The notes under the pieces: generated by a model
Told to the model about the DNA's origin: nothing
The model's database searches: none
The model's input: only the letters and a program-made list of their open reading frames with translations
Shown: positions 1 through 32,000 of the stretch, in pieces
Layout of the letters: each line of letters begins with the position of its first letter
Position numbering within the stretch: position 1 is the first letter of the stretch
Made by a program: the position numbers and the translations under genes
NCBI RefSeq assembly: GCF_003231495.1
Contig: NZ_PQWO01000005.1
Coordinates: forward strand, 30,001 to 62,000
Direction of reading: 5' to 3'
From: Acaryochloris thomasi RCC1774
GTDB lineage: Bacteria > Cyanobacteriota > Cyanobacteriia > Thermosynechococcales > Thermosynechococcaceae
DNA: 32,000 nucleotides

Positions 1-65
1 TTATTTTATTTTATGCATTGACCTAAGGCTATGAATCAGTATTTCAGTTCACCAAAGACCGTGAT

Positions 66-467
66 TCAGCCCATCAGCAAAACAGTATCAATGCAGTGGA
101 TGATGCCGTTGTCTACTTCAATATCAGGGGCAATGACGGTGGCATTTTTAACCTCAAATCCATCTGAAATATGGATGGGGAGTGGCGAACCTTCTACAGA
201 GGTCAGTTCACCGAGATCTTGCAGATCTTCCTGGCTATAAGTGCCAGAAACAACGTGGTAGGTGAGGATGCGGCCCAGTTGCGGTAGGTTCTGCAGTAGG
301 GTTTGAATAGTTCCAGGCGGTAGCTTTTCAAATGCGCTGTCTACAGGAGCAAAGACAGTGAAGGGGCCTGGGCTTTGCAGGGTTTCCACTAGGCCCGCTG
401 CGCTGACGGCGGCAACGAGGGTTTTGAAGTTGGGAGATGCGATCGCAGTTTCGACAATATCTGCCAT
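66..467 (-). CDS. cupS: Fasciclin (FAS1) domain protein, probable CupS subunit of NDH-1MS
   Basis: The 133-aa ORF carries the classic FAS1 motifs [15 protein letters not shown] and [12 protein letters not shown]. It is the last gene of the ndhF3-ndhD3-cupA cluster on the same strand. That is the position held by the roughly 134-aa fasciclin/MPB70-like CupS (sll1735) in Synechocystis, recalled from memory. Confidence 0.7.
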
Positions 468-510
468 TGAAGATTTTCCTTATAGGTGAGAAATATCAAA
501 AACTCTACAT

Positions 511-543
511 TGGCCCCCCCGGCCCCCCAATTCTGGGGGGAGA
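511..543 (+). repeat. 33-nt C6/G6 hairpin repeat, copy 1 (TGGCCCCCCCGGCCCCCCAATTCTGGGGGGAGA)
   Basis: This copy is identical to 1974-2006 and matches the reverse complement of 2424-2456 at 31/33 positions. It contains a CCCCCC-AATTCT-GGGGGG stem-loop. It lies in the cupA-cupS spacer. Confidence 0.9.
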
Positions 544-559
544 GAAGCATAGGCTGGGG

Positions 560-1858
560 CTAGCGATATTGAGCTGTTTGAATGTCTCTAAGGCGGGCTT
601 CAGACCGCTTGAAACGATCCATTTGCGCTTCAAAAAACGCGCGGTTGGCCTCTAGATGCTTGGGGTTCGGATCATCAAGGGGATACAGCAGCGCACACCG
701 TAGCGCCTGAATAACAGCGGAGGTAACGGTGTACATCGATCGCTGAAAGCTAATACCCAACTGAATCAGGGTATCGTCGTCGCCGCGACAGTGCTGCTGA
801 TAGTAGTCCACCAGATAGTCGGGCAAGAAATGGAGCATATCCTGCATGAGCTGGGTGGGAGGAATCCCAGCGGTGCCAACGGGGAAAACATCGGCGTATA
901 AAATGCCGTAGTGAAACTCTTTTTGCTGCTCGGGAACTTGCCCCACCTGAGCGTTATAAGATTTCGTGCCCCGAAACGGAGAGGTGCGGTAGAAAATGGC
1001 TTCCACGTAGGGAAGTGCGGCTTCGTAGAGCCACATGAAGCCTTTTGATTTAGGGATGATTTCGTAGCACTCGCCTCGGATGTATACATGGTGATAGATG
1101 GGACGACCTGCGATCTCAAAGATCCCATTCACCAAAAAGTCCATCGCCTCTGGCACGGTGGTGAGTTTGCTTTCATCGTATAAATCAGACATCTCAAAGA
1201 ACACTGGGGCCATCACCTCCCAGAACAGACCCAAATTTGAGTAGTACGACATCTGCCGACACTGCTCTAAAAACATCTCTGGGAAGAGCTTATAGAGGCC
1301 CAACATAACAGGGTTGCGAGCGAAGAAAGCGCGAATCGCTTGGTCCGCATTGGCTCGATATTCGTCAGTATCGAGAAACGCATCGAACTGACCCATGCCC
1401 ATATCTCGACCGTGCCAGAGCATCGCTCGCATACAGGACTCAGCGAACTCCATATTGATGCGATCGTGCCAGAGGTGGTGGAGCAGCTTCGGCATTTTCC
1501 GGGTTTCGCCGGATTCCATGAAAGCCAGCAGCTCAGGATGGGCGGTGGCTTCTCCACGCCAGACTCGAAGGTCGGCCCCCTCCCCTGCATAGTGGTTGGG
1601 CAGATCGAGGTAGGACTGCGGCAGAAAGTATTTGAAGAAGGGGAGCGGTTCTAGAAAAACGTGCTCAGCAATGTAGAGCAGATCGCGCCAATAGAAATCC
1701 ATTGGCACAGCATAGGCTTTGTAGAGACCGATAATCTGCATCAGGTTCGCGGGAGAGTCAGGCAGCATTGCGCCCCCTGCTTCAAGGCGATGGACAACCT
1801 CAGCAAACTCATGGTTTGAGGGTGGCAGAGTAGCGGGTGGCGATGCGGCTTGAGTCAT
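560..1858 (-). CDS. cupA: CO2 hydration protein CupA (ChpY) of the NDH-1MS complex
   Basis: The 432-aa ORF has ChpX/ChpY-type sequence (for example LPFFKYFLP and YWRDLLYIAEHVF). Its size fits CupA rather than the shorter CupB. It lies downstream of ndhF3/ndhD3. Confidence 0.85.
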   Translation of the reverse strand: MTQAASPPATLPPSNHEFAEVVHRLEAGGAMLPDSPANLMQIIGLYKAYAVPMDFYWRDLLYIAEHVFLEPLPFFKYFLPQSYLDLPNHYAGEGADLRVWRGEATAHPELLAFMESGETRKMPKLLHHLWHDRINMEFAESCMRAMLWHGRDMGMGQFDAFLDTDEYRANADQAIRAFFARNPVMLGLYKLFPEMFLEQCRQMSYYSNLGLFWEVMAPVFFEMSDLYDESKLTTVPEAMDFLVNGIFEIAGRPIYHHVYIRGECYEIIPKSKGFMWLYEAALPYVEAIFYRTSPFRGTKSYNAQVGQVPEQQKEFHYGILYADVFPVGTAGIPPTQLMQDMLHFLPDYLVDYYQQHCRGDDDTLIQLGISFQRSMYTVTSAVIQALRCALLYPLDDPNPKHLEANRAFFEAQMDRFKRSEARLRDIQTAQYR

Positions 1859-1973
1859 GGTGTTTGTTAAGTGTGGATCTCAAATTTGAGGTAGAAGTTT
1901 TGACTTGGTGTTCGTTCCTTTAGAGCGATTGTTGTATATACATAGGCTGGGATAGGACTTTTGGGCTTTGCAC

Positions 1974-2006
1974 TGGCCCCCCCGGCCCCCCAATTCTGGG
2001 GGGAGA
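1974..2006 (+). repeat. 33-nt C6/G6 hairpin repeat, copy 2
   Basis: This is an exact 33/33 copy of 511-543. It ends 6 nt from the stop codon of the DUF559 ORF. Confidence 0.9.
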
Positions 2007-2012
2007 TTGTCT

Positions 2013-2408
2013 TTATTGGGTTGATGCTTGGTTGTGAATAGTCGCTAAGACCGTCTGGAGATTTTGCTCTACGGCTTTATTGCTAAAGCGGATTACTGTG
2101 TAGCCGTACCTTTCTAAATGCTCAGTTCGGGCTTCGTCATAATCCTGTTGCTGTTGATGAACCCCGCCATCAATTTCTACGACTAGTTGGCAAGAGGGGC
2201 AGTAAAAGTCGACGATGAAACGACCAATGGGATGCTGACAGCGAAATCGAAGCCCACCTAGTTTCCGATTTTTTAGAGCCTGCCATAACTTAGCCTCTGC
2301 TGGCGTGAGTCTGTTTCGCAGGCGACGAGCTGCAAGCTCAGTCTCTGGCGTCGTACCGCGAATCCTGTCGTAAGACTTATCCATCAAAAGCTGAGTTTCC
2401 ATTACCAT
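2013..2408 (-). CDS. DUF559 domain protein (Vsr-like PD-(D/E)xK endonuclease fold)
   Basis: The 131-aa ORF shows the typical DUF559 pattern: TPAEAKLWQALKNRKLGGLRFRCQHPIGRFIVDFYCPSCQLVVEIDGGVH...RTEHLERYGYTVIRFSNKAV. Confidence 0.85.
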   Translation of the reverse strand: MVMETQLLMDKSYDRIRGTTPETELAARRLRNRLTPAEAKLWQALKNRKLGGLRFRCQHPIGRFIVDFYCPSCQLVVEIDGGVHQQQQDYDEARTEHLERYGYTVIRFSNKAVEQNLQTVLATIHNQASTQ

Positions 2409-2419
2409 GAGACCTTCCG

Positions 2420-4039
2420 CTATTCTCCCCCCAGAATTGGGGGGCTGGGGGGGCTAAGCGCAATACTTCGAGAATCCTCTAATTGAATTGCATGAGCCGA
2501 GGTCGCCAGCGCAATACTCTGAGCATCCACTACCGAACCTCTGCTGTCCAACCCACGACTAGGAATCTCAGCCACAACACCCACCTGCGGCACCGCAGCA
2601 ACGATCGCATCTGCCGTATTCTCGCTCCAGCGCGTCAACCACATCGGCTGCAGTCCCAAAATCAAGATCATGACCGTGAGAATCAATGCTGGGGCGCGTT
2701 CTGGCACTGTCACTTTAGGATAGTAAGCCGTTTGACTATCCAAACGACCAAAGCAGGTGCGATTAATCAAAATCACGAAATATACCGCCGTCAAACCCGA
2801 AGCAATAATGCACAGCAGCGTCGGTATCGGGAAACGCGCGAAGCTGCCTTGAAAGACCATGTACTCAGCAATAAAGCCTACGAGTCCCGGAATTCCAGCA
2901 CTCGCCATGCCCGCGACCACTAGCAATGCACTCACCATCGGTAAGCCTCGCACGGGGTTCATAAGACCGTTTAGTTTGTTCAAATCGCGGGTGCCCACTT
3001 TCGTTTCCACCAGGCCAAGGAGGTGAAACAACAGGGCCAGAATTAAACCGTGGCTGACCATTTGTGCGATCGCACCCGTCAAGCTCAAGGTGTTGCCCGC
3101 CGCCGCCGCCACCAGAATGTAGCCCATGTGCCCAATCGAACTGTAGGCCACCATACGCTTGACGTCGGACTGTGCGATCGCACTTAACGCCCCATACATA
3201 ACGCTAAACGTTCCAATCGCGGCTAAGCCGGGAGCGACCAAATCCCATGCTTCTGGGAAAAGCTGCAGACAAAATCGAATCAGCCCGTAAGTTCCTAGTT
3301 TCGCCAACACCCCCCCCAACAAGATGGCAATAGGCGGGGAAGCTTCAACATACACATCCGGTTGCCAAGTATGCAGAGGAACAAGCGGCGTCTTGATGCC
3401 GAACCCCACCAGCAAGATCGTCAGCAAGACTAGCTGCAGATTTCGCGGAATTGTGGTGGTATCGAGATCGATGTATTCAAAACTAGTGCTGCCGCTCAAC
3501 CAAGTCAGGCCCAAAAAGCCCAGCAAGATCAGGATGCCGGAGAGTGCCGTGTATAAAAGGAACTTCGTGGCTGCATATGATTTTTGCTCACCGCCCCAGA
3601 TTGATACCAGCAGATAAAAGGGAATCAGCTCTAGCTCGTAGAACAAAAAGAAGAGCAGCAAGTTCTGCGCCAGCAAAGACCCAGCCACGCCAATATTGAC
3701 GATAAAAATAAGCGAATAGTACAGCTTCGGACGCTCTAGCTCCGCAGGGCTACTATAGATCGCAATCCAGGTGAGGACACTGCTCAACATCAGCAGCGGC
3801 AGCGATAACCCATCCACCGCCAGCGAATAGTTGAGACCCAAATCAGGCAGCCAAGCCAAGACAGTTGTGAGCTGCAGCCCTGAGACAGCAGTTTGAAACT
3901 GGCTCAAGACATAAACGGTCCAGACCAACAACAGACCCGCAATCCACAGGGCAAGCTGCTTAATGTGCTGAGCCTGAGGCCAAGCAATAATCAGCAATGC
4001 ACCAGCCAAGGGAATTAGAAGTAGAGTGCTTAGCGTCAT
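2420..4039 (-). CDS. ndhD3: NAD(P)H-quinone oxidoreductase subunit D3 (NdhD3, NuoM-like antiporter subunit)
   Basis: The 539-aa polytopic ORF is of the NuoM/NdhD type. It sits between ndhF3 and cupA. The C-terminal roughly 40 aa are hydrophilic and the frame ends inside repeat copy 3. Confidence 0.85.
   Translation of the reverse strand: MTLSTLLLIPLAGALLIIAWPQAQHIKQLALWIAGLLLVWTVYVLSQFQTAVSGLQLTTVLAWLPDLGLNYSLAVDGLSLPLLMLSSVLTWIAIYSSPAELERPKLYYSLIFIVNIGVAGSLLAQNLLLFFLFYELELIPFYLLVSIWGGEQKSYAATKFLLYTALSGILILLGFLGLTWLSGSTSFEYIDLDTTTIPRNLQLVLLTILLVGFGIKTPLVPLHTWQPDVYVEASPPIAILLGGVLAKLGTYGLIRFCLQLFPEAWDLVAPGLAAIGTFSVMYGALSAIAQSDVKRMVAYSSIGHMGYILVAAAAGNTLSLTGAIAQMVSHGLILALLFHLLGLVETKVGTRDLNKLNGLMNPVRGLPMVSALLVVAGMASAGIPGLVGFIAEYMVFQGSFARFPIPTLLCIIASGLTAVYFVILINRTCFGRLDSQTAYYPKVTVPERAPALILTVMILILGLQPMWLTRWSENTADAIVAAVPQVGVVAEIPSRGLDSRGSVVDAQSIALATSAHAIQLEDSRSIALSPPSPPILGGE
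2424..2456 (-). repeat. 33-nt C6/G6 hairpin repeat, copy 3 (inverted orientation)
   Basis: The reverse complement, TAGCCCCCCCAGCCCCCCAATTCTGGGGGGAGA, matches copies 1 and 2 at 31/33 positions. It lies 15 nt upstream of the DUF559 start. It encodes the last 11 codons (SPPSPPILGGE) of the ndhD3 ORF. Confidence 0.9.
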
Positions 4040-4126
4040 GGTTATCGCTTTTTATACATGGATTTATACATCGACAGAAAAAGACAGCTATGAATTTTGA
4101 GTTCTCAAAGGCTGAGCATGCAACGC

Positions 4127-5986
4127 CTACGACAGCAGTGGATAGGCCAACGCCAGAATCAAAAGAGTGACGCCAATTACAATCGACAGCAAGTAAAACT
4201 GTCCCGCTCCAGTGTTGTTGTACTTCAAAGTCTGTCCCCCAAAAAGCGTCGCCAGTCCCACGCCGTTAACGGCTCCATCAACGAAGATGCGGTCAAACCA
4301 GTTCACCAGACGCGAGACCTGATTCACAGCCAAGATAATGGTGCCGCGATAAATCTCAGCGGTGTATAAATCATTAGCAAACGCCTTCTGGAGCTGCGGC
4401 CAAAATAAGCGAATGGGGCGAGGCGTCAGCTTACCGATGTATAAAACACCACCGATGCCGCCGCCCAATAGACAGGACCAGAGCAGCAAAAGAACAAAAG
4501 GCTTTTCTAGCATTGCCCAGTCGGGCAGCGCTGACGCCTGATTTAAGATCATCGGCACATGAAGAACCACGCCTGATAAAACCGTCATCGGCACCACCAT
4601 CGGCCACAAAACCTCAGGAGATCGCGCCATCATTGCATGGGGCTGCCCCATGAATACCAAGCCAAACAAACGAGCCAAACTCAGCGTTGTCAAGGCGTTC
4701 ACCAACAGCACCACGCCCACCAATAGCGGATGATCAGTCCATAAATCAGTCAGAAGCCTGAGCAAAGCCCAAAAGCCACCCAGAGGTGGTAGCCCCACTA
4801 GACCCGCAGCCCCCACTAAAAACGCAAGGCCAGAGATCGGTCGTCGCGCCCAAACGCCACCCATTTGAGTCACGTCTTGGGTAATATTGCTCCAGATAAT
4901 CGTGCCGGTGCTCATGACCAGCAGCGCCATCGAAACGGCGTAAGTAAACATCAGCAGCAGGGCTGTATCGGTATGCCCAGTTCCCACTGCGATAAAGACA
5001 AGGCCCATGTAAGCGCTGACGCTGTAGGAGAGGGCGCGCTTGAGATCAATCTGTGCGATCGCAACCAAGGTAGCCCCAACAGCCGTCGTTGCCCCCACCC
5101 ATACCACTGCGGCAGAGGCAACAGGCGACAGCGCCAAAACCGGCTGCACCTTAATCAAGACCCAGGCTCCAGTACCAACCACCACCGCATTCCGCAAAAT
5201 ACTGGCGGGGAGCGGCCCCTCCATCGCTTCATCAAGCCACAGATGCAGCGGGAACTGCGCGCATTTGCCCAGCGGTCCTGACATCAACGCCAGTCCCAGC
5301 AGCGTTAAAGTCAATGGCGCGACGGAAGCCTGATCGGCCCAGGTCGCAAGATCTCCATAGTGCCAAGTACCGGCCAGCGGCCAGAGCGCCACCACCGCCA
5401 TCAGCAGAATCAGGTCACCCACCCGCTTGGTCAAGAAAGCATCTCTTGCGCCTGTGACCACCAGCGACTGATTAAACCAGATGCCCACCAGTAGATAGGT
5501 GCCCAACGTCAAAATCTCGAGAATGACGTAGCTAAAAAACAGTGAGTTGAAGAGCGCCAAAGCGCACATCCCAGCTTCAAACAGGCTGATGGAAGCGTAG
5601 AATCTAGCCCATCCCCAGTCCATCTCTAGATAGCCAACGGCATAGAGCTGCGCCAAGATATTGAGACCCGTTATGGTTGAGATCGCGCCTATCGTCTGAC
5701 TGGAATACTCCAGCGGCAAAATAAGCTGCAGATCAGACACCGTCAGCCAGTTTACCGAAATCTCCTGGGCGGGTTCTCCCCAAATGGCGGTCAACGCCAG
5801 CAAACTATGAACAAAGCCCACACCTGCCGTCACGATATTGATATATCCCGCCGGACGCGGCCCCGTTCGCCGAAACCCTGCCGGAGACCAAAAAACCGAC
5901 GCCATCCCGCTCAGCAGCGTATAGATCGGAATCCAGTAGACCGTACTGAGACTCGCTTGCTGAACCGACTCCAATGCTTGGGACAT
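4127..5986 (-). CDS. ndhF3: NAD(P)H-quinone oxidoreductase subunit F3 (NdhF3, NuoL-like)
   Basis: This is a polytopic NuoL/NdhF-type ORF and the first gene of the cluster. I chose the internal ATG at 5986 (MSQALESVQQ..., 619 aa) over the track start at 6079. The extra 31 aa look non-native, and about 615 aa is the usual NdhF3 length. Confidence 0.85.
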   Translation of the reverse strand: MSQALESVQQASLSTVYWIPIYTLLSGMASVFWSPAGFRRTGPRPAGYINIVTAGVGFVHSLLALTAIWGEPAQEISVNWLTVSDLQLILPLEYSSQTIGAISTITGLNILAQLYAVGYLEMDWGWARFYASISLFEAGMCALALFNSLFFSYVILEILTLGTYLLVGIWFNQSLVVTGARDAFLTKRVGDLILLMAVVALWPLAGTWHYGDLATWADQASVAPLTLTLLGLALMSGPLGKCAQFPLHLWLDEAMEGPLPASILRNAVVVGTGAWVLIKVQPVLALSPVASAAVVWVGATTAVGATLVAIAQIDLKRALSYSVSAYMGLVFIAVGTGHTDTALLLMFTYAVSMALLVMSTGTIIWSNITQDVTQMGGVWARRPISGLAFLVGAAGLVGLPPLGGFWALLRLLTDLWTDHPLLVGVVLLVNALTTLSLARLFGLVFMGQPHAMMARSPEVLWPMVVPMTVLSGVVLHVPMILNQASALPDWAMLEKPFVLLLLWSCLLGGGIGGVLYIGKLTPRPIRLFWPQLQKAFANDLYTAEIYRGTIILAVNQVSRLVNWFDRIFVDGAVNGVGLATLFGGQTLKYNNTGAGQFYLLSIVIGVTLLILALAYPLLS

Positions 5987-6099
5987 AGATTTTAAGGGGC
6001 AGACAGTGAAATTAAAACAGAATTGATAAAGACCGTTCAACGATCGGATACCACTCTCACCATAGAAACGAAAGAGCACAGACGAAGTTACTTAAAACT

Positions 6100-6330
6100 T
6101 CTTAACTATTCTCACGATAATAGAGTTCAGGCATTTATCAAAAGCACTATATTTTATTAAATGGATAGACTTAAGCCTACTTGACCGCATTATTGGATCT
6201 TTCCCGTAAATCCTTAAGTCCTTGCAGAAAGTAGCATACGACATAACCTTATCGGACTGCCAAAGTGCTTACATTGAGTAAAGACTATGTTTTTTGTCTA
6301 TCAATAGACTCTATCCTGTTAATAGGATCA
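6100..6330. promoter_or_regulatory. Divergent ndhF3 / LysR-regulator control region with clustered ATAG/CTAT half-sites
   Basis: This AT-rich spacer holds about 10 ATAG/CTAT tetramers. Examples are CTATT-N8-AATAG at 6105-6122 and the overlapping inverted repeats TCTATCAATAGACTCTATCCTGTTAATAGGA at 6296-6326. As I recall, NdhR/CcmR-type LTTRs are reported to bind ATAG/CTAT dyads. Confidence 0.4.
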
Positions 6331-6384
6331 AACCATTCTGATGTCTAAACCGTCACCCGAACGTAGAACAGAGATAGCGATTGT

Positions 6385-7299
6385 ATGCAACCCACACTTC
6401 ACCAGCTCAAAGTTTTTGAAACAGCAGCCCGCCATCAAAGCTTTACCCGTGCTGCGGAAGAACTGTTCCTCACCCAGCCCACGGTCTCAATTCAGATGAA
6501 GCAGTTGGCCCAGACGATAGGGCTACCCCTGTTTGAGAAGCTGGGGAAACAGCTCTTTTTAACGGAAGCGGGACAAGAGCTATTAGGCACCTGCCAAGAT
6601 ATTTTTGAACGGCTCGATCAGTACGAGATGCTCGTGGCCGATTTGCAGGGGATGGCGAAGGGCAGACTGCGGTTGGCGGCAGTCACCACCACCAAATACT
6701 TTGTGCCGCGCCTCTTGGGGCCTTTTTGCCAAGAATATCCCGGCATCGATGTCTCCCTTAAGGTTACGAACCACCGGCAACTTGAAGAGCGCATTGCCAA
6801 TAACCAGGACGATCTCTACATTTTAAGCCAGCCGCCGGAGCAGCTTAATTTACACGTACAGCCTTTTTTAGAGAATCCTTTAGTGGTTTTTTCCCCTGCG
6901 AATCATCCGCTAGCGCATAAAAAAGGGCTGTCCATTCAGTGTCTAAATGATGAACCCTTCATCACCAGAGAGGCAGGATCAGGAACTCGGAAAGCTGTTC
7001 AGGAGCTGTTTGGTGAACACAAGGTCTCCGTCAAGACTCGCCTGGAGTTAAGCAGCAACGAAGCCATTAAACAGGCGGTTGCGGGTGGTCTTGGTATTTC
7101 GGTCCTCTCCCGCCATACGCTGCACTCAGGTGATGATAAGGAGCTATCTATTTTAGATGTTGAACATTTTCCGATTCAGCGCCAGTGGTATGTCTGCTAC
7201 TTCATGGGCAAACAGCTTTCGGTGGTGGCAAGAACGTTCTTAGAGCATCTACTTAAAGTTAGTGAACAACTGGCTGTTCTCTACAAAAGTGGGACATAG
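6385..7299 (+). CDS. ccmR: LysR-type transcriptional regulator, CcmR/NdhR (RbcR/CmpR family)
   Basis: The 304-aa ORF has an N-terminal LTTR helix-turn-helix (LKVFETAARHQSFTRAAEELFLTQPTVSIQMKQLA). It is divergent from ndhF3, as ccmR is in Synechococcus PCC 7002. Confidence 0.65.
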   Translation: MQPTLHQLKVFETAARHQSFTRAAEELFLTQPTVSIQMKQLAQTIGLPLFEKLGKQLFLTEAGQELLGTCQDIFERLDQYEMLVADLQGMAKGRLRLAAVTTTKYFVPRLLGPFCQEYPGIDVSLKVTNHRQLEERIANNQDDLYILSQPPEQLNLHVQPFLENPLVVFSPANHPLAHKKGLSIQCLNDEPFITREAGSGTRKAVQELFGEHKVSVKTRLELSSNEAIKQAVAGGLGISVLSRHTLHSGDDKELSILDVEHFPIQRQWYVCYFMGKQLSVVARTFLEHLLKVSEQLAVLYKSGT

Positions 7300-7331
7300 C
7301 TGACCCACTCACCTTAGGTAGCTTCTTACAC

Positions 7332-8171
7332 TTAAGAGGCAACGGGGGTGAGCTGTCGTTCTAGCCATTCAATCAAGTCGGCCAGAATTTCTGGGTAGTT
7401 CAGGTCGATATAGAGATCGTGGTATGACTCTGGATAGAAATACCGCTCTTTGTTGGTAAACGTGACCCGTTCAAAAAATTTTTGGCTGCCTTCAGGAAGG
7501 GCGATGCGATCGCACCCTCCATGCATCATCAACAGCGGCGTCCGTAAATCACTGGCATGCTCTAGCAAGCCATCCGCCGTTTTGGCAAATTCCGTCACCA
7601 TACGCGCCGTCCCCTGATAGTGCCGCAGCGGATCGTCCAGCAAGGTCTTCATGACCGCCTGATCACGGCTACCGAGACAGGGATCTAAGCCTGACTTGAG
7701 GCTAAATCGAGGCCAGATGATCGACAAAACTTGTCCCAAAGCTCTCTGGAGCCGTGGGAGTGAGTTCTCAATCGGCAGGGCGCTGGCAATCACGCCCTGG
7801 AGTTCGTTTGGCATCTGCAAAACATAGTCCAAGACGATCATCGCTCCCAGGCTATGCCCCCATAAAAAGCACGGCGTTGCAGCCTGTTCTTCAGCCACTA
7901 ACTTGAGAAAGCAATCTAAATCTTGGCGAAATTCTGACCAGGAGTTAATGTAGGCCCGCTGTCCTGGTGAGCGTCCATGTCCTCGCAGATCAAAGGCATA
8001 GACAGCATAGCCCTGCGGCATCAAAGCCTTCACAAGATTGGTATGGCGATCGCTATGGGCACCGAGGCCGTGAACAGCCACCACAACGGCGCGCAGATCA
8101 AAGGGGTGCCAGGATTGATAGTAAAGGGGGAGGTCTCCAGCCCCTAAAAAGGTTCCTTCGTGGTGATCCAT
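7332..8171 (-). CDS. Alpha/beta hydrolase (lysophospholipase / monoacylglycerol lipase-like)
   Basis: The 279-aa ORF has the nucleophile elbow GHSLG. The spacing of HG...GHG...D...H is typical of this fold. Confidence 0.7.
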   Translation of the reverse strand: MDHHEGTFLGAGDLPLYYQSWHPFDLRAVVVAVHGLGAHSDRHTNLVKALMPQGYAVYAFDLRGHGRSPGQRAYINSWSEFRQDLDCFLKLVAEEQAATPCFLWGHSLGAMIVLDYVLQMPNELQGVIASALPIENSLPRLQRALGQVLSIIWPRFSLKSGLDPCLGSRDQAVMKTLLDDPLRHYQGTARMVTEFAKTADGLLEHASDLRTPLLMMHGGCDRIALPEGSQKFFERVTFTNKERYFYPESYHDLYIDLNYPEILADLIEWLERQLTPVAS

Positions 8172-29961: not shown

Positions 29962-32000
29962 ATGATCACAGTCAGTCTTTCGAACTTAAACGGAGAAAAT
30001 GGTTTTGTCGTCCGCAGAATTACCTTCCCAGATCCGTCAGAGGGTGTTGGCTCGTCTGTTAGTGGAGCGGGAGACATTAACGGTGACGGATTTGACGATC
30101 TGATTCTGGGGCCAGATAGTGGCATGTACAAATATGGAGAGACCAAAGTCTATGTCATATACGGAAGCAGTGAGAATACCAGCGGTAGCTTGGGCTTAGC
30201 CGATCTCAATGGAAACAATGGCTTTATCATCGAGAGTGCCAACCCCAACAGCACTTCCATTAGACCCTCCAGTTTTGGCAGCGAATACAGTATTGAAACG
30301 GGCACAGCGGACAGCAATGCCGGATTTTCGGTCAGTGGGCTAGGCGACATCAACGGAGATGGCATTGATGACTTCATTATTGGCGCACCCAGAAGACCGC
30401 TCAAGATACCATTCAGTCCCCCTACCCCCGTCGGTTCAGGACAAGGTTACGTCGTCTTCGGTCGTTCTGAAGGCTTTAGCAAAAACTTCAGCCTAGCCGA
30501 GCTTGATGGTGAGACAGGCTTTGTCATTGAAAGCGACACGACCGGAAGCCTCACCGGACAATCCGTCAGCAACGTTGGGGACTTTAACGGCGATGGATTA
30601 GACGACATTATCATTGGAGCACCTGGCTTAGACCCTGCAGGAACTAGCTATCTAATCTTCGGCTCAGATAAGGGCTTCGATAAAAGCCTTGCGCTATCAG
30701 ACTTAAATGGCAGTAATGGGTTCGCCCTATCTGGCAGCAGCATTGGTGATCAAACGGGGACTGCTGTCAGTGGAGCAGGCGATGTCAACGGTGATGGATT
30801 TGATGATCTCATTGTTGCTGCCCCCAACGGCAGCAATGCAGCAGGCATTACCTACGTCCTTTTCGGTACTAATACGACGCCCAGAAGTATCAACGTCGAC
30901 AGCTTAAATGGAAACAATGGTTTCGCAATCTTTGGAGAAGAAACATACGACATCTCAGGACTTTCTGTCAGTGACATTGATGACTTTAACGGCGATGGAT
31001 TTGATGACCTCATTATTGGTACAGGGAGTGGCACAAACGGTGTAGGAGTAAGCCACGTGATCTTTGGACAAGCTGACGGTTTTCCTGCAGCTTTGAACGT
31101 GAACGAAATCGACGGCAGGAATGGCTTTAGCATCGTCGGTGAAGAACGGACTGGCGCAGGCCGGTCTGTCAGCGGTGCAGGTGATATTAATGGTGATGGC
31201 TTAGGTGATGTTATTGTCGGCGCCCCCGATACCAATTATTTAGCTGGCGCTAGCTACGTTCTCTTCGGCCAACAAGACAGCGTCGAGCCAGCCGTAGATT
31301 TAGCGAATCTATCTCCCAGTCAGGGATTCTTGATCCCCGGTGATGAGAACTTCAGTCGTGGCTCAAATTCGTACGCTTACATTGGCGATGCTGTCAGTGG
31401 AGCAGGCGATATCAATGGGGATGGGATTGATGACTTGGTCATCGGTTCAAGGGGCGGCTTCATCATAGGGACCGGTTCTGCACAGAGCTATGTTGTCTTT
31501 GGCAACGCTCCGCCTGAGCTTGATCTAAATTCCAAGCAGGATGGTTTGAACTCTACCGCAACCTTTACACAAGGAGCCATTTCCCTTGCTAGACCAGGTA
31601 GCATAGCGGTCACAGATGCCAACACTTCCACTCTGAGAAGCGCAACGATCTCAATTACTAATCCTCTAGATAATGAATCAGAGATCCTAGCGGCTAACGT
31701 TAATGACACTGAGATTACGGCCACCTACGACAGTGCGACATCGACGCTGACCCTGACCGGGAAAGATACGCTTGAGAACTATCAGCGAGTTCTAGCAACC
31801 ATTACCTATAACAATACGGCTGATAGCCCTGACCCGACAGATCGCTCCATCCAATTTGTCATCAATGATGGTGCAGATTTTAGTAATGAAAGTGCGATGG
31901 CCGATGGCCGGTCGGAGACCATCGCAACGACAGCCATCACGTTCGAGTTACTTAACAGAATTGACGGCACAAGTGATCCCGATACGCTGTTCGGAAGCCG
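29962..32000 (+). CDS. Large secreted FG-GAP repeat (integrin-alpha-like beta-propeller) adhesin, 5' part only
   Basis: The reading frame is open from ATG 29962 to the window edge and is absent from the ORF track because it has no stop. It has seven FG-GAP blades, each with a DxNGDGxDD calcium motif (for example GDINGDGFDDLILG and GDFNGDGLDDIIIG). An adhesin-type module (LTLTGKDTLENYQRVLATITYNNTADSP) follows, then the start of RTX-like repeats (DGTSDPDTLFGS). Confidence 0.85.
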   Translation, partial: MITVSLSNLNGENGFVVRRITFPDPSEGVGSSVSGAGDINGDGFDDLILGPDSGMYKYGETKVYVIYGSSENTSGSLGLADLNGNNGFIIESANPNSTSIRPSSFGSEYSIETGTADSNAGFSVSGLGDINGDGIDDFIIGAPRRPLKIPFSPPTPVGSGQGYVVFGRSEGFSKNFSLAELDGETGFVIESDTTGSLTGQSVSNVGDFNGDGLDDIIIGAPGLDPAGTSYLIFGSDKGFDKSLALSDLNGSNGFALSGSSIGDQTGTAVSGAGDVNGDGFDDLIVAAPNGSNAAGITYVLFGTNTTPRSINVDSLNGNNGFAIFGEETYDISGLSVSDIDDFNGDGFDDLIIGTGSGTNGVGVSHVIFGQADGFPAALNVNEIDGRNGFSIVGEERTGAGRSVSGAGDINGDGLGDVIVGAPDTNYLAGASYVLFGQQDSVEPAVDLANLSPSQGFLIPGDENFSRGSNSYAYIGDAVSGAGDINGDGIDDLVIGSRGGFIIGTGSAQSYVVFGNAPPELDLNSKQDGLNSTATFTQGAISLARPGSIAVTDANTSTLRSATISITNPLDNESEILAANVNDTEITATYDSATSTLTLTGKDTLENYQRVLATITYNNTADSPDPTDRSIQFVINDGADFSNESAMADGRSETIATTAITFELLNRIDGTSDPDTLFGS

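Follow-up and report, generated by a model that had tools for sequence, protein, structure and literature searches.

A DUF559 nuclease gene between inverted hairpin arms in the ndhD3-cupA gap of Acaryochloris thomasi: a candidate selfish cassette in a REPIN-like repeat

What is a small predicted nuclease gene, bracketed by inverted hairpin repeats, doing between ndhD3 and cupA in the CO2-uptake operon of the cyanobacterium Acaryochloris thomasi RCC1774? The stretch of DNA analysed here, hereafter the window, comprises 32,000 nt (positions 30,001 to 62,000 of contig NZ_PQWO01000005.1), and the relevant operon genes all lie on its minus strand. An earlier note on this DNA had described a DUF559 gene between inverted copies of a 33-nt repeat, co-directional with the operon, as a minimal selfish cassette; the shared direction holds, the strand being minus. 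On balance, and by a modest measure, we favour the view that the ndhD3-cupA gap contains a selfish cassette in which a DUF559 nuclease gene sits between the inverted hairpin arms of a unit resembling a REPIN (a doublet of repetitive extragenic palindromic, or REP, sequences). The features on which this view turns are as follows.

2420-4039, minus strand: ndhD3, 539 aa
2420-2463, minus strand: left arm (copy C), reading in the operon direction TTGCGCT-TA-GCCCCCCC-AG-CCCCCC-AATTCT-GGGGGG-AGA
2013-2408, minus strand: DUF559 open reading frame (ORF), 131 aa, a predicted nuclease of the Vsr-fold PD-(D/E)xK type
1966-2006, minus strand: right arm (copy B), reading in the operon direction TCT-CCCCCC-AGAATT-GGGGGG-CC-GGGGGGGCC-AGTGCAAAG
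1917-1965, minus strand: probable outer right-end segment, ...AGTCC...TATGTATATACAAC, inferred as such and conserved in the related locus L201
560-1858, minus strand: cupA/chpY, for the CO2 hydration protein, next gene downstream of the cassette

The 33-mers, at 1974-2006 and 2424-2456, are inverted, identical at 31 of 33 positions, and separated from the ORF by 6 nt on its stop side and 15 nt on its start side, just as the earlier note had it. In the operon direction the arm comprises a first C-box (GCCCCCCC), a 2-nt spacer, a C-stem (CCCCCC), a loop (AATTCT) and a G-stem (GGGGGG); the CCCCCC-AATTCT-GGGGGG hairpin previously noticed in each 33-mer does fold, with 6-7 G-C base pairs and an energy of -20 to -25 kcal/mol. 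Both arms are thus present as described, and a third copy had been missed: the window contains the 22-nt arm core three times, where shuffles give an expectation of 0.00, the additional one belonging to a solo arm (copy A, 503-543) that is 93% identical to copy B over 41 nt. All three copies occupy intergenic gaps of this one operon, and no further C5-N6-G5 hairpin was found in the other ~30 kb of the window. The proposed size of the element has also to be revised. The 33-mers do span 483 bp, but the inverted similarity of the arms runs outward to ~2463 and ~1966 (TTGCGCT / TTGCACT), and the segment 1917-1965 resembles the outer end ...AGTCCCTGTAGACTTGTGTGTACACGGTAGC that bounds duplicated cassettes at other loci (L072 and L208) and gene-less short units (L019 and L038). 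The right end of the element probably reaches ~1917, which would therefore make the element nearer 545 bp than 483 bp.

That the cassette is very probably an insertion at the ndhD3-cupA site is supported by the corresponding junctions of relatives, obtained by fetching the neighbourhoods of the closest CupA proteins. At L204, whose CupA is 87% identical, the junction is empty (ndhD3, a 33-nt gap, cupA, a 42-nt gap and the fasciclin-domain gene). At L201/L202, from a stromatolite Thermosynechococcaceae metagenome-assembled genome (MAG) with a CupA 92% identical, a gap of 318 nt still has the right arm, together with the outer flank to cupA; of the DUF559 ORF only the final ~45 nt survive, and the left arm has largely been lost. 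This remnant implies that the cassette is older than the split of that MAG from the A. thomasi lineage and has been decaying in one of the two. The earlier note had proposed looking to relatives for an empty site, and both an empty 33-nt junction and a decayed remnant are now at hand.

The 3' end of ndhD3 itself bears the mark of the event. The ORF has no stop before the repeat and runs through the left arm to a C-terminus of ...SPPSPPILGGE*, its final residues and stop codon lying within the arm, so that the tail of NdhD3 is partly arm-encoded; the ndhD3 family model stops near residue 487-499, whereas the ORF extends to 539 aa. The cassette would thus have entered the 3' end of ndhD3, replacing its stop codon, in an ancestor shared by A. 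thomasi and the closest sequenced relative; it would later have decayed in that relative while staying intact in A. thomasi, expressible there by read-through of the low-CO2-induced operon only. A Shine-Dalgarno-like GGAAGG does lie 5 nt 5' of the DUF559 ATG. Because the 15 nt from arm to ATG are too few to accommodate a separate promoter and a promoter scan of 300-2700 returned no promoter-like site, co-transcription with the operon is plausible on sequence grounds, and DUF559 expression would therefore have to come from the operon transcript. The C-terminal extension of ndhD3 also contains a 21-nt direct repeat (AGCGCAATACT...) in two copies, at 2457-2477 and 2508-2528 (minus strand), 51 nt apart; both copies include the outer arm motif TTGCGCT, and L201 has one copy. 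The pair may have been left behind by an earlier arm or have arisen by slippage.

Has the cassette been copied elsewhere? In the metagenome of L202, locus L209 carries an intact cassette in another setting, adjoining four tRNA genes; its arms are essentially identical to those of the window, its protein is 70% identical, and the similarity ends at the outer arm ends. An Acaryochloris MAG (assembly JAAUOM01) carries two cassettes on separate contigs that are 93% identical over 514 nt, with the identity breaking sharply at ...GTGTGTACACGGTAGC, the right boundary, and with unrelated flanks beyond. Neither the window nor L209 shows a visible target-site duplication where its cassette ends. Cassettes (L208, L209, L210, L211 and L072) are often found a few hundred bases or less from the end of a contig, as would fit assembly breaks induced by repeats, and draft genomes therefore probably understate the copy number.

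The 131-aa product matches PF04480 with E=1.4e-38 (131.6 bits against a cut-off of 20.6), which upholds its assignment to DUF559. Pfam finds in it DUF559 and MTES_1575 only, without an N-terminal NUMOD or helix-turn-helix (HTH) module. The closest database protein, 100% identical, is an Acaryochloris thomasi 'endonuclease domain-containing protein' annotated as beginning two residues later than the 131-aa ORF, and the family as a whole amounts to 25,255 clusters at 50% identity with E up to 1e-3, or 12,283 with E up to 1e-10. A family profile built from 38 cyanobacterial homologues matches, by hmmsearch, the N. gonorrhoeae DUF559 structure 3hrl (E=8e-32) and the catalytic domain of the homing endonuclease I-Bth0305I (3r3p, E=8e-4), to which the window protein is detectably homologous. 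Consistent with these matches, a Foldseek search with the AlphaFold2 model (predicted local distance difference test score, pLDDT, 82.6) returns 3hrl with a target-normalised template modelling score (TM-score) of 0.91, 3r3p with a probability of 1.0 and a target-normalised TM-score of 0.72, and E. coli Vsr (1vsr) with a probability of 0.99. D67, E78, D80 and H84 (D...ExD...H) are invariant in the 38-sequence alignment and are carried by the window protein. Residues 1-20 are modelled with low confidence and are followed by two helices, formed by the conserved N-terminal region R-I-R-G-T-T...L-T-P-A-E. The window protein is, as modelled, a predicted endonuclease with a Vsr-type alpha/beta nuclease fold. 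No transposase family was matched in the cassette, the only ORF of which is DUF559. A separate reading of the gene as part of a defence system was dropped, its PADLOC and PHROGs matches being weak and uninformative.

How general is the pairing of such genes with arms? An independent sample of DUF559 genes was drawn from 80 metagenomic loci (40-66% identity, many lineages, mostly distant non-cyanobacterial relatives), and flanks were scored by the best local alignment of the 150 nt upstream with the reverse complement of the downstream flank, with a threshold of 30. Of 70 DUF559 genes 40% reach that threshold, compared with 1.6% of the 193 other ORFs of these loci (Mann-Whitney p=6e-10), and flanking inverted repeats accompany 23 of 52 metagenomic DUF559 genes (44%) as against 0 of 414 size-matched random windows from the same loci (Fisher p=7e-25). 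Of 17 cases in which both nearest arms could be typed, 11 have the gene between a left and then a right arm, the layout of the window. Preferential flanking by inverted copies, which the earlier note had put forward, is therefore borne out. The same note had conceded that the 33-mer might prove a ubiquitous REP-like element with no preference for DUF559; it is ubiquitous, at 120 or more loci, yet the preference exists all the same. We regard the association of DUF559 with arms as close to certain.

The view from the repeat is complementary. The 18-nt hairpin core was searched in one genome per species, giving at least 120 loci, and the statements made here about these repeat-selected loci hold among the matches listed. 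When the window protein was searched against 120 such loci by tblastn, four DUF559 genes were found: those of L072 and L085 lie between a left and a right arm, exactly in the layout of the window, and those of L052 and L108 are embedded among arms. Only four clean inward-facing arm pairs stand 100-3000 nt apart; two enclose DUF559, one encloses ndhK-ndhJ (with two independent arms) and one encloses no ORF, leaving DUF559 as the sole recurring cargo of wide inward-facing pairs. In L085 the gene stands between the arms at exactly the place of the ~6-nt core spacer of the short units, the arm extensions ACTTTGA and GGTT being retained. Gene and arm are also joined in frame: of the 120 nearest homologue clusters, 27 terminate in PPELGG or a close variant, mostly ...FPPELGG*, so that the last codons, and usually the stop too, are arm sequence (TTCCCCCCAGAATTGGGGGGCTAG). 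Homologues of the FPPELGG* type are only ~60-65% identical to the window protein, and a fusion kept at that distance argues that gene and 3' arm are inherited as a unit. In other phyla the box-spacer-stem-loop-stem architecture (C-box, spacer, C-stem, loop, G-stem) recurs beside DUF559 with arms of differing sequence, for example CCTCACCCC-TG-CCCCTCTCC-loop-GGAGAGGGG or ACCCCCAAACCCCCC-AA-GGGGGG. As an observation apart, DUF559 genes recur beside DUF1156/DUF499/DUF3780 clusters, predicted DNA-modification or defence-like genes, at L212 2143-3345 (plasmid pAQ6 of PCC 7002) and on metagenomic contigs L224-L233.

It is against these data that a coincidental neighbourhood has to be judged, in which the arms would be generic REP-like hairpins (mRNA stabilisers, terminators or insulators) sharing dispensable intergenic DNA with a dispensable DUF559 gene; in a variant, the transcribed hairpins would be the substrate of DUF559 as an RNA endonuclease, comparable to the RAP domain of FASTK proteins. 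Arms do occur in ordinary operon gaps that have no DUF559 gene, as with copy A after cupA and with L119 around ndhK-ndhJ, the hairpins are stable as RNA, and the Foldseek list includes mitoribosomal Vsr-like RNA-binding proteins (PMC11879112). Chance proximity is, however, hard to square with the 44% of bracketed DUF559 genes or with a frame fusion conserved at such protein divergence. None of the three arms in the window is called as an intrinsic terminator on the sense (minus) strand, where a U-tract is absent, copy B alone being called, on the antisense strand, and Rfam scans of window positions 1-7000 and of ten cassette loci gave no family matching them. We consider this explanation highly improbable.

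An invertible switch, with programmed inversion of the DUF559 segment brought about by the inverted repeats, has a certain appeal, since 33-nt inverted repeats would allow recombination and 'DUF559 domain-containing protein' was reported, without further comment, as 14-fold enriched among inverted-repeat-flanked predicted targets of programmed inversion (PMC9881135). With asymmetric arms (5C versus 6C type), however, the 3' end of the gene consistently abuts the 6C arm. No recombinase was found in the cassette or in six Pfam-scanned neighbour proteins, other ORFs in 1-8000 not having been scanned, and inversion would have no obvious purpose inside a co-directional operon. We give this explanation hardly any credence.

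What, then, is the repeat when no gene is present? The 33-mer is one arm of a ~68-nt palindromic gene-less unit that is common in many cyanobacteria, with the consensus GCCCCCC-TAG-CCCCCC-AATTCT-GGGGGG-(10-25 nt)-CCCCC-AGAATT-GGGGG-ATTTA-GGGGGC, the two inverted arms of which form a long palindrome, like a REPIN. Core matches come from many cyanobacterial genera, with Chloroflexota and other groups contributing a few; in 59 of the 73 left-to-right arm pairs the arms stand no more than 60 nt apart, and even among the matches listed individual genomes show several copies of the unit. For most taxa the outer G|CCCCCC...GGGGGG|C is the exact limit of the palindrome, without extended terminal repeats, and target-site duplications, sought around 57 short units, were absent at most of them. 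Units of Acaryochloris, Petrachloros and Altericista have longer outer inverted ends (...TGCAYT.GCCCCCC; further out GTGTACACACAAG or AATACTGTTCGG), possible direct repeats of 7-13 nt border some short units (L019, L065 and L114), and cassette ends match short-unit ends in L034, L019, L065, L114 and L072. A ~25-nt element (...ATAGCCCTGACGGGCATTCAAGAAA / TTTCTGGAATGCCCG...) is inserted in the hairpin-arm loop at L072 27-57, at L016 and at L072 near 6742; the sequences suggest nested micro-elements that target arms.

The longer outer ends and bordering direct repeats of some Acaryochloris and Petrachloros units, together with a Tn5-type transposase fragment that adjoins one cassette, are what one would expect if the units were akin to miniature inverted-repeat transposable elements (MITEs), moved by a conventional transposase encoded elsewhere, with DUF559 a passenger or a one-time capture in the spacer. 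We judge this improbable. The exact palindrome ends of most cyanobacterial units, with neither extended terminal repeats nor target duplication, speak against it, as does the failure of any other gene family to recur between arms; and since DUF559 is paired with C-box hairpins of differing sequence across phyla, a single capture event is not an explanation.

Short units outnumber gene-bearing ones by ~20-30 to 1 in the repeat-selected loci, and this excess raises another possibility, namely that the system is an analogue of REPIN-RAYT (RAYT, REP-associated tyrosine transposase), with a resident and mostly vertical DUF559 gene, in one or few copies per genome, mobilising short units in trans. 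The arms around the gene would then mark the origin of the system and not mobility of the gene, much as RAYT genes are likewise bordered by inverted REPs (PMC3116915, PMC3337134). The exact proteins occur in one stable context across samples, as this explanation would have it, and in E. coli, as described below, a single-copy DUF559 gene accompanies a many-copy repeat. Against it, DUF559 is not an HUH/Y1 transposase and has no known strand-transfer chemistry, the ndhD3-cupA cassette is variously present, absent and decayed in close relatives, a whole cassette has been duplicated within one MAG, and 38% of E. coli genomes keep the repeat without the ycjD segment. We think this explanation unlikely, though deserving of serious attention.

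A related picture is seen in E. coli K-12, where the DUF559 gene ycjD (L207 5408-5761) ends ...NRRSPSP*, reading into a C-rich arm. Some 170 nt 3' of ycjD, after a fragment duplicating the ycjD 3' end, stands CCCCTCGCCCCTC-TGG-GGAGAGGG-TTA-GGGTGAGGGG; the region between ycjD and fabI (L207 5195-5425) thus holds both a second DUF559 3'-end remnant and a BoxC-like repeat. A 47-mer from this repeat is present in all 5,426 of 5,426 complete E. coli genomes, at a median of 19 places per genome, and the ycjD 3' segment in 3,378 of the 5,426 (62%), twice per genome at most. Upstream of ycjD no arm was seen, and the E. coli genomes lacking the gene offered no clean empty site, a resistance-nodulation-division (RND) efflux operon replacing the region in O157. 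BoxC was first described next to envM/fabI, the gene adjoining ycjD. On that ground and on copy number (BoxC is 56 bp long, with 22-32 copies in E. coli; PMC2267715), the repeat 3' of ycjD is probably BoxC. The E. coli picture of ycjD and its repeat mirrors the cyanobacterial one and provides a tractable test system.

If the ndhD3-cupA gap does hold a selfish cassette, how might it spread? DUF559 would recognise the sequence or structure of the arms and nick or cleave at or between them; that the predicted nuclease acts on the arms we infer as probable, though well short of assured. Host repair would then copy the gene from an occupied unit into gene-less units, with the arms as homology, which would amount to homing into a dispersed repeat, and the same cuts might drive the copying of short units as well, much as in REPIN-RAYT. 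We prefer such homing-type copying tentatively, as a possibility well short of an even chance, to the mobilisation of units in trans, already called unlikely. A gene that homes into an already existing repeat and a repeat that depends on the gene would each account for the data. Less probable are a conventional transposase that carries DUF559 along, chance proximity and an inversion switch.

Several observations weigh against a selfish cassette of this kind. About half of the sampled DUF559 genes have no flanking inverted repeat at the threshold used, and the layout varies, the genes of L108 and of PCC 7002 pAQ6 standing between outward-facing arms or within arm arrays. The repeats are common to a large population of gene-less units. 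The cutting of arms by DUF559 is a proposed step, and as hydrolysis of DNA is all that a nuclease of the Vsr type performs, the cassette could move only with the help of host repair. The lack of target-site duplications at the cassette ends fits homing, though as evidence it is weak. The arms of the window and L209 are near-identical at a protein identity of 70%, and arms so much more conserved than the protein could be kept up by something other than the DUF559 gene. Finally, exact look-ups of proteins P0062 and P0025 gave one genomic context each across samples, and no sign of recent bursts.

The remainder of the operon shows how variable its junctions are. Its genes run in the order ndhF3, ndhD3, DUF559 ORF, cupA/chpY and fasciclin-domain gene, the last of which is probably cupS, CupS having a fasciclin-like fold. 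The features around the cassette are these.

6385-7299, divergent from the operon: LysR-type regulator gene
4127-6079, minus strand: ndhF3
503-543, minus strand: solo third arm (copy A), oriented as copy B, 16 nt past the cupA stop and ahead of the fasciclin-domain gene
66-467, minus strand: fasciclin-domain gene, last in the operon order

Copy A is missing at the matching position in both relatives compared. Arms A (503-543) and B (1966-2006) are direct repeats flanking cupA, and recombination between them would remove cupA precisely. The cupA-fasciclin gap differs among the three loci: in the window (468-559) it holds the solo arm A, in L201 (6430-7227) a 265-aa Uma2-family (PF05685) endonuclease gene without C/G-run arms, and in L204 only 42 nt. 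Small PD-(D/E)xK nuclease genes or repeats thus occupy both intergenic gaps of the operon, ndhD3-cupA and cupA-fasciclin. In another relative (L206, 2304-2945) ndhF3 and ndhD3 are separated by a beta-carbonic anhydrase gene (PF00484), and an acetyltransferase gene on the antisense strand overlaps the junction of ndhD3 with cupA; the gene junctions of the operon are variable in general. Elsewhere in the window, a large ORF at 30058-31445 contains seven diverged repeats with a period of ~201-273 nt and GD(I/V)NGDG(I/F)DD-type motifs (FG-GAP / calcium-binding-like), and HIP1 sites (GCGATCGC) are frequent throughout.

The finding generalises well past the window, and the proposed mechanism combines kinds akin to homing-endonuclease genes and to REPIN-like systems. 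To our knowledge, C-rich hairpin repeats, E. coli BoxC among them, have been catalogued for decades with neither an origin nor an enzyme known for them. DUF559, for its part, is a very large family without an assigned biological role, and coupling to the repeat would give both a testable function. It would also add a hydrolytic Vsr-fold nuclease to the few enzymes that sustain intragenomic repeat populations, and it would explain many spurious 'PPELGG/SPLPxGEG' ORF tails in annotations. At the locus studied here, selfish elements can evidently remodel a core carbon-concentrating operon, the C-terminus of NdhD3 having been rewritten and ndhD3 and cupA now standing ~560 nt apart with hairpin-rich RNA between them; the insertion would also have placed a predicted nuclease under low-CO2 control. 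Tractable hosts with examples are E. coli (ycjD) and Synechococcus PCC 7002 (pAQ6, SYNPCC7002_RS14775). Taken more broadly, we advance only as a tentative proposal, and one more apt to fail than to hold, that a pan-bacterial class of hairpin repeats with C-boxes and G-boxes has its partner enzymes in the Vsr-fold nucleases of the DUF559/YcjD family. Such a class would cover the cyanobacterial GCCCCCC-TAG-CCCCCC-loop-GGGGGG, the CCTCACCCC-CCCCTCTCC-loop-GGAGAGGGG of other phyla and, probably, E. coli BoxC, and, if real, would constitute a second and mechanistically distinct REPIN-like system, driven by a nickase instead of an HUH transposase.

Parts of this picture have precedents. The earlier note knew of no DUF559 gene as cargo or engine of a mobile element. 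This stands in so far as no publication tying DUF559 to hairpin repeats or MITE-like units was found in the literature on DUF559/PF04480/COG2852, ycjD, BoxC and the arms, which suggests that a systematic partnership across bacteria is undescribed; it does not stand in full, as the enrichment among inversion targets cited above had been published and relatives of DUF559 with the Vsr fold, I-Bth0305I for one, are established homing endonucleases (PMC3239194). Steczkiewicz et al. place VSR, DUF559, DUF2726 and 3r3p in one clade (PMC3424549), and in some T4-like phages mobE is replaced by Vsr-like genes (bioRxiv 10.1101/2022.08.31.505936). For an enzyme gene flanked by its own repeat, REPIN-RAYT is the conceptual precedent (PMC3116915, PMC3337134).

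How does the cassette compare with these known systems? With the EDxHD / Vsr-like homing endonucleases of the I-Bth0305I type (free-standing phage genes of the Hef type included) it shares the catalytic fold, at detectable homology, and the character of a small selfish nuclease gene with occupied (window), empty (L204) and decayed (L201/L202) alleles. The DUF559 protein differs, however, in having 131 aa and no NUMOD/HTH module, and its gene lies in neither an intron nor an intein but inside a dispersed chromosomal hairpin repeat, as opposed to a unique conserved gene. With MITEs and their autonomous partners the likeness is that the same terminal inverted sequences are found on a long form with a gene and on far commoner short forms without one; here, though, there is no recognisable transposase, and most short units have no target-site duplication or inverted repeat past the arms. 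The E. coli BoxC-like repeat is likewise a C-rich/G-rich hairpin of box-spacer-stem-loop-stem design at or just 3' of the end of a DUF559 gene, but its sequence is different (CCCTCTCCCC...GGGGAGAGGG...GGGTGAGGGG) and an arm was not seen upstream of ycjD. As in REPIN-RAYT, many-copy short units consist of two inverted hairpins, the enzyme gene is flanked by inverted copies of its own repeat, and, apart from the possible direct repeats of 7-13 nt at some short units, an obvious target duplication is absent in either system. The enzyme here, in contrast, is a predicted PD-(D/E)xK Vsr-fold hydrolase and not an IS200/IS605-type HUH/Y1 tyrosine transposase, the arms consist of two C-rich boxes and a G-rich box in place of a GTAG-/CGTC-tagged palindrome, and the DUF559 gene has apparently been gained, lost and duplicated.

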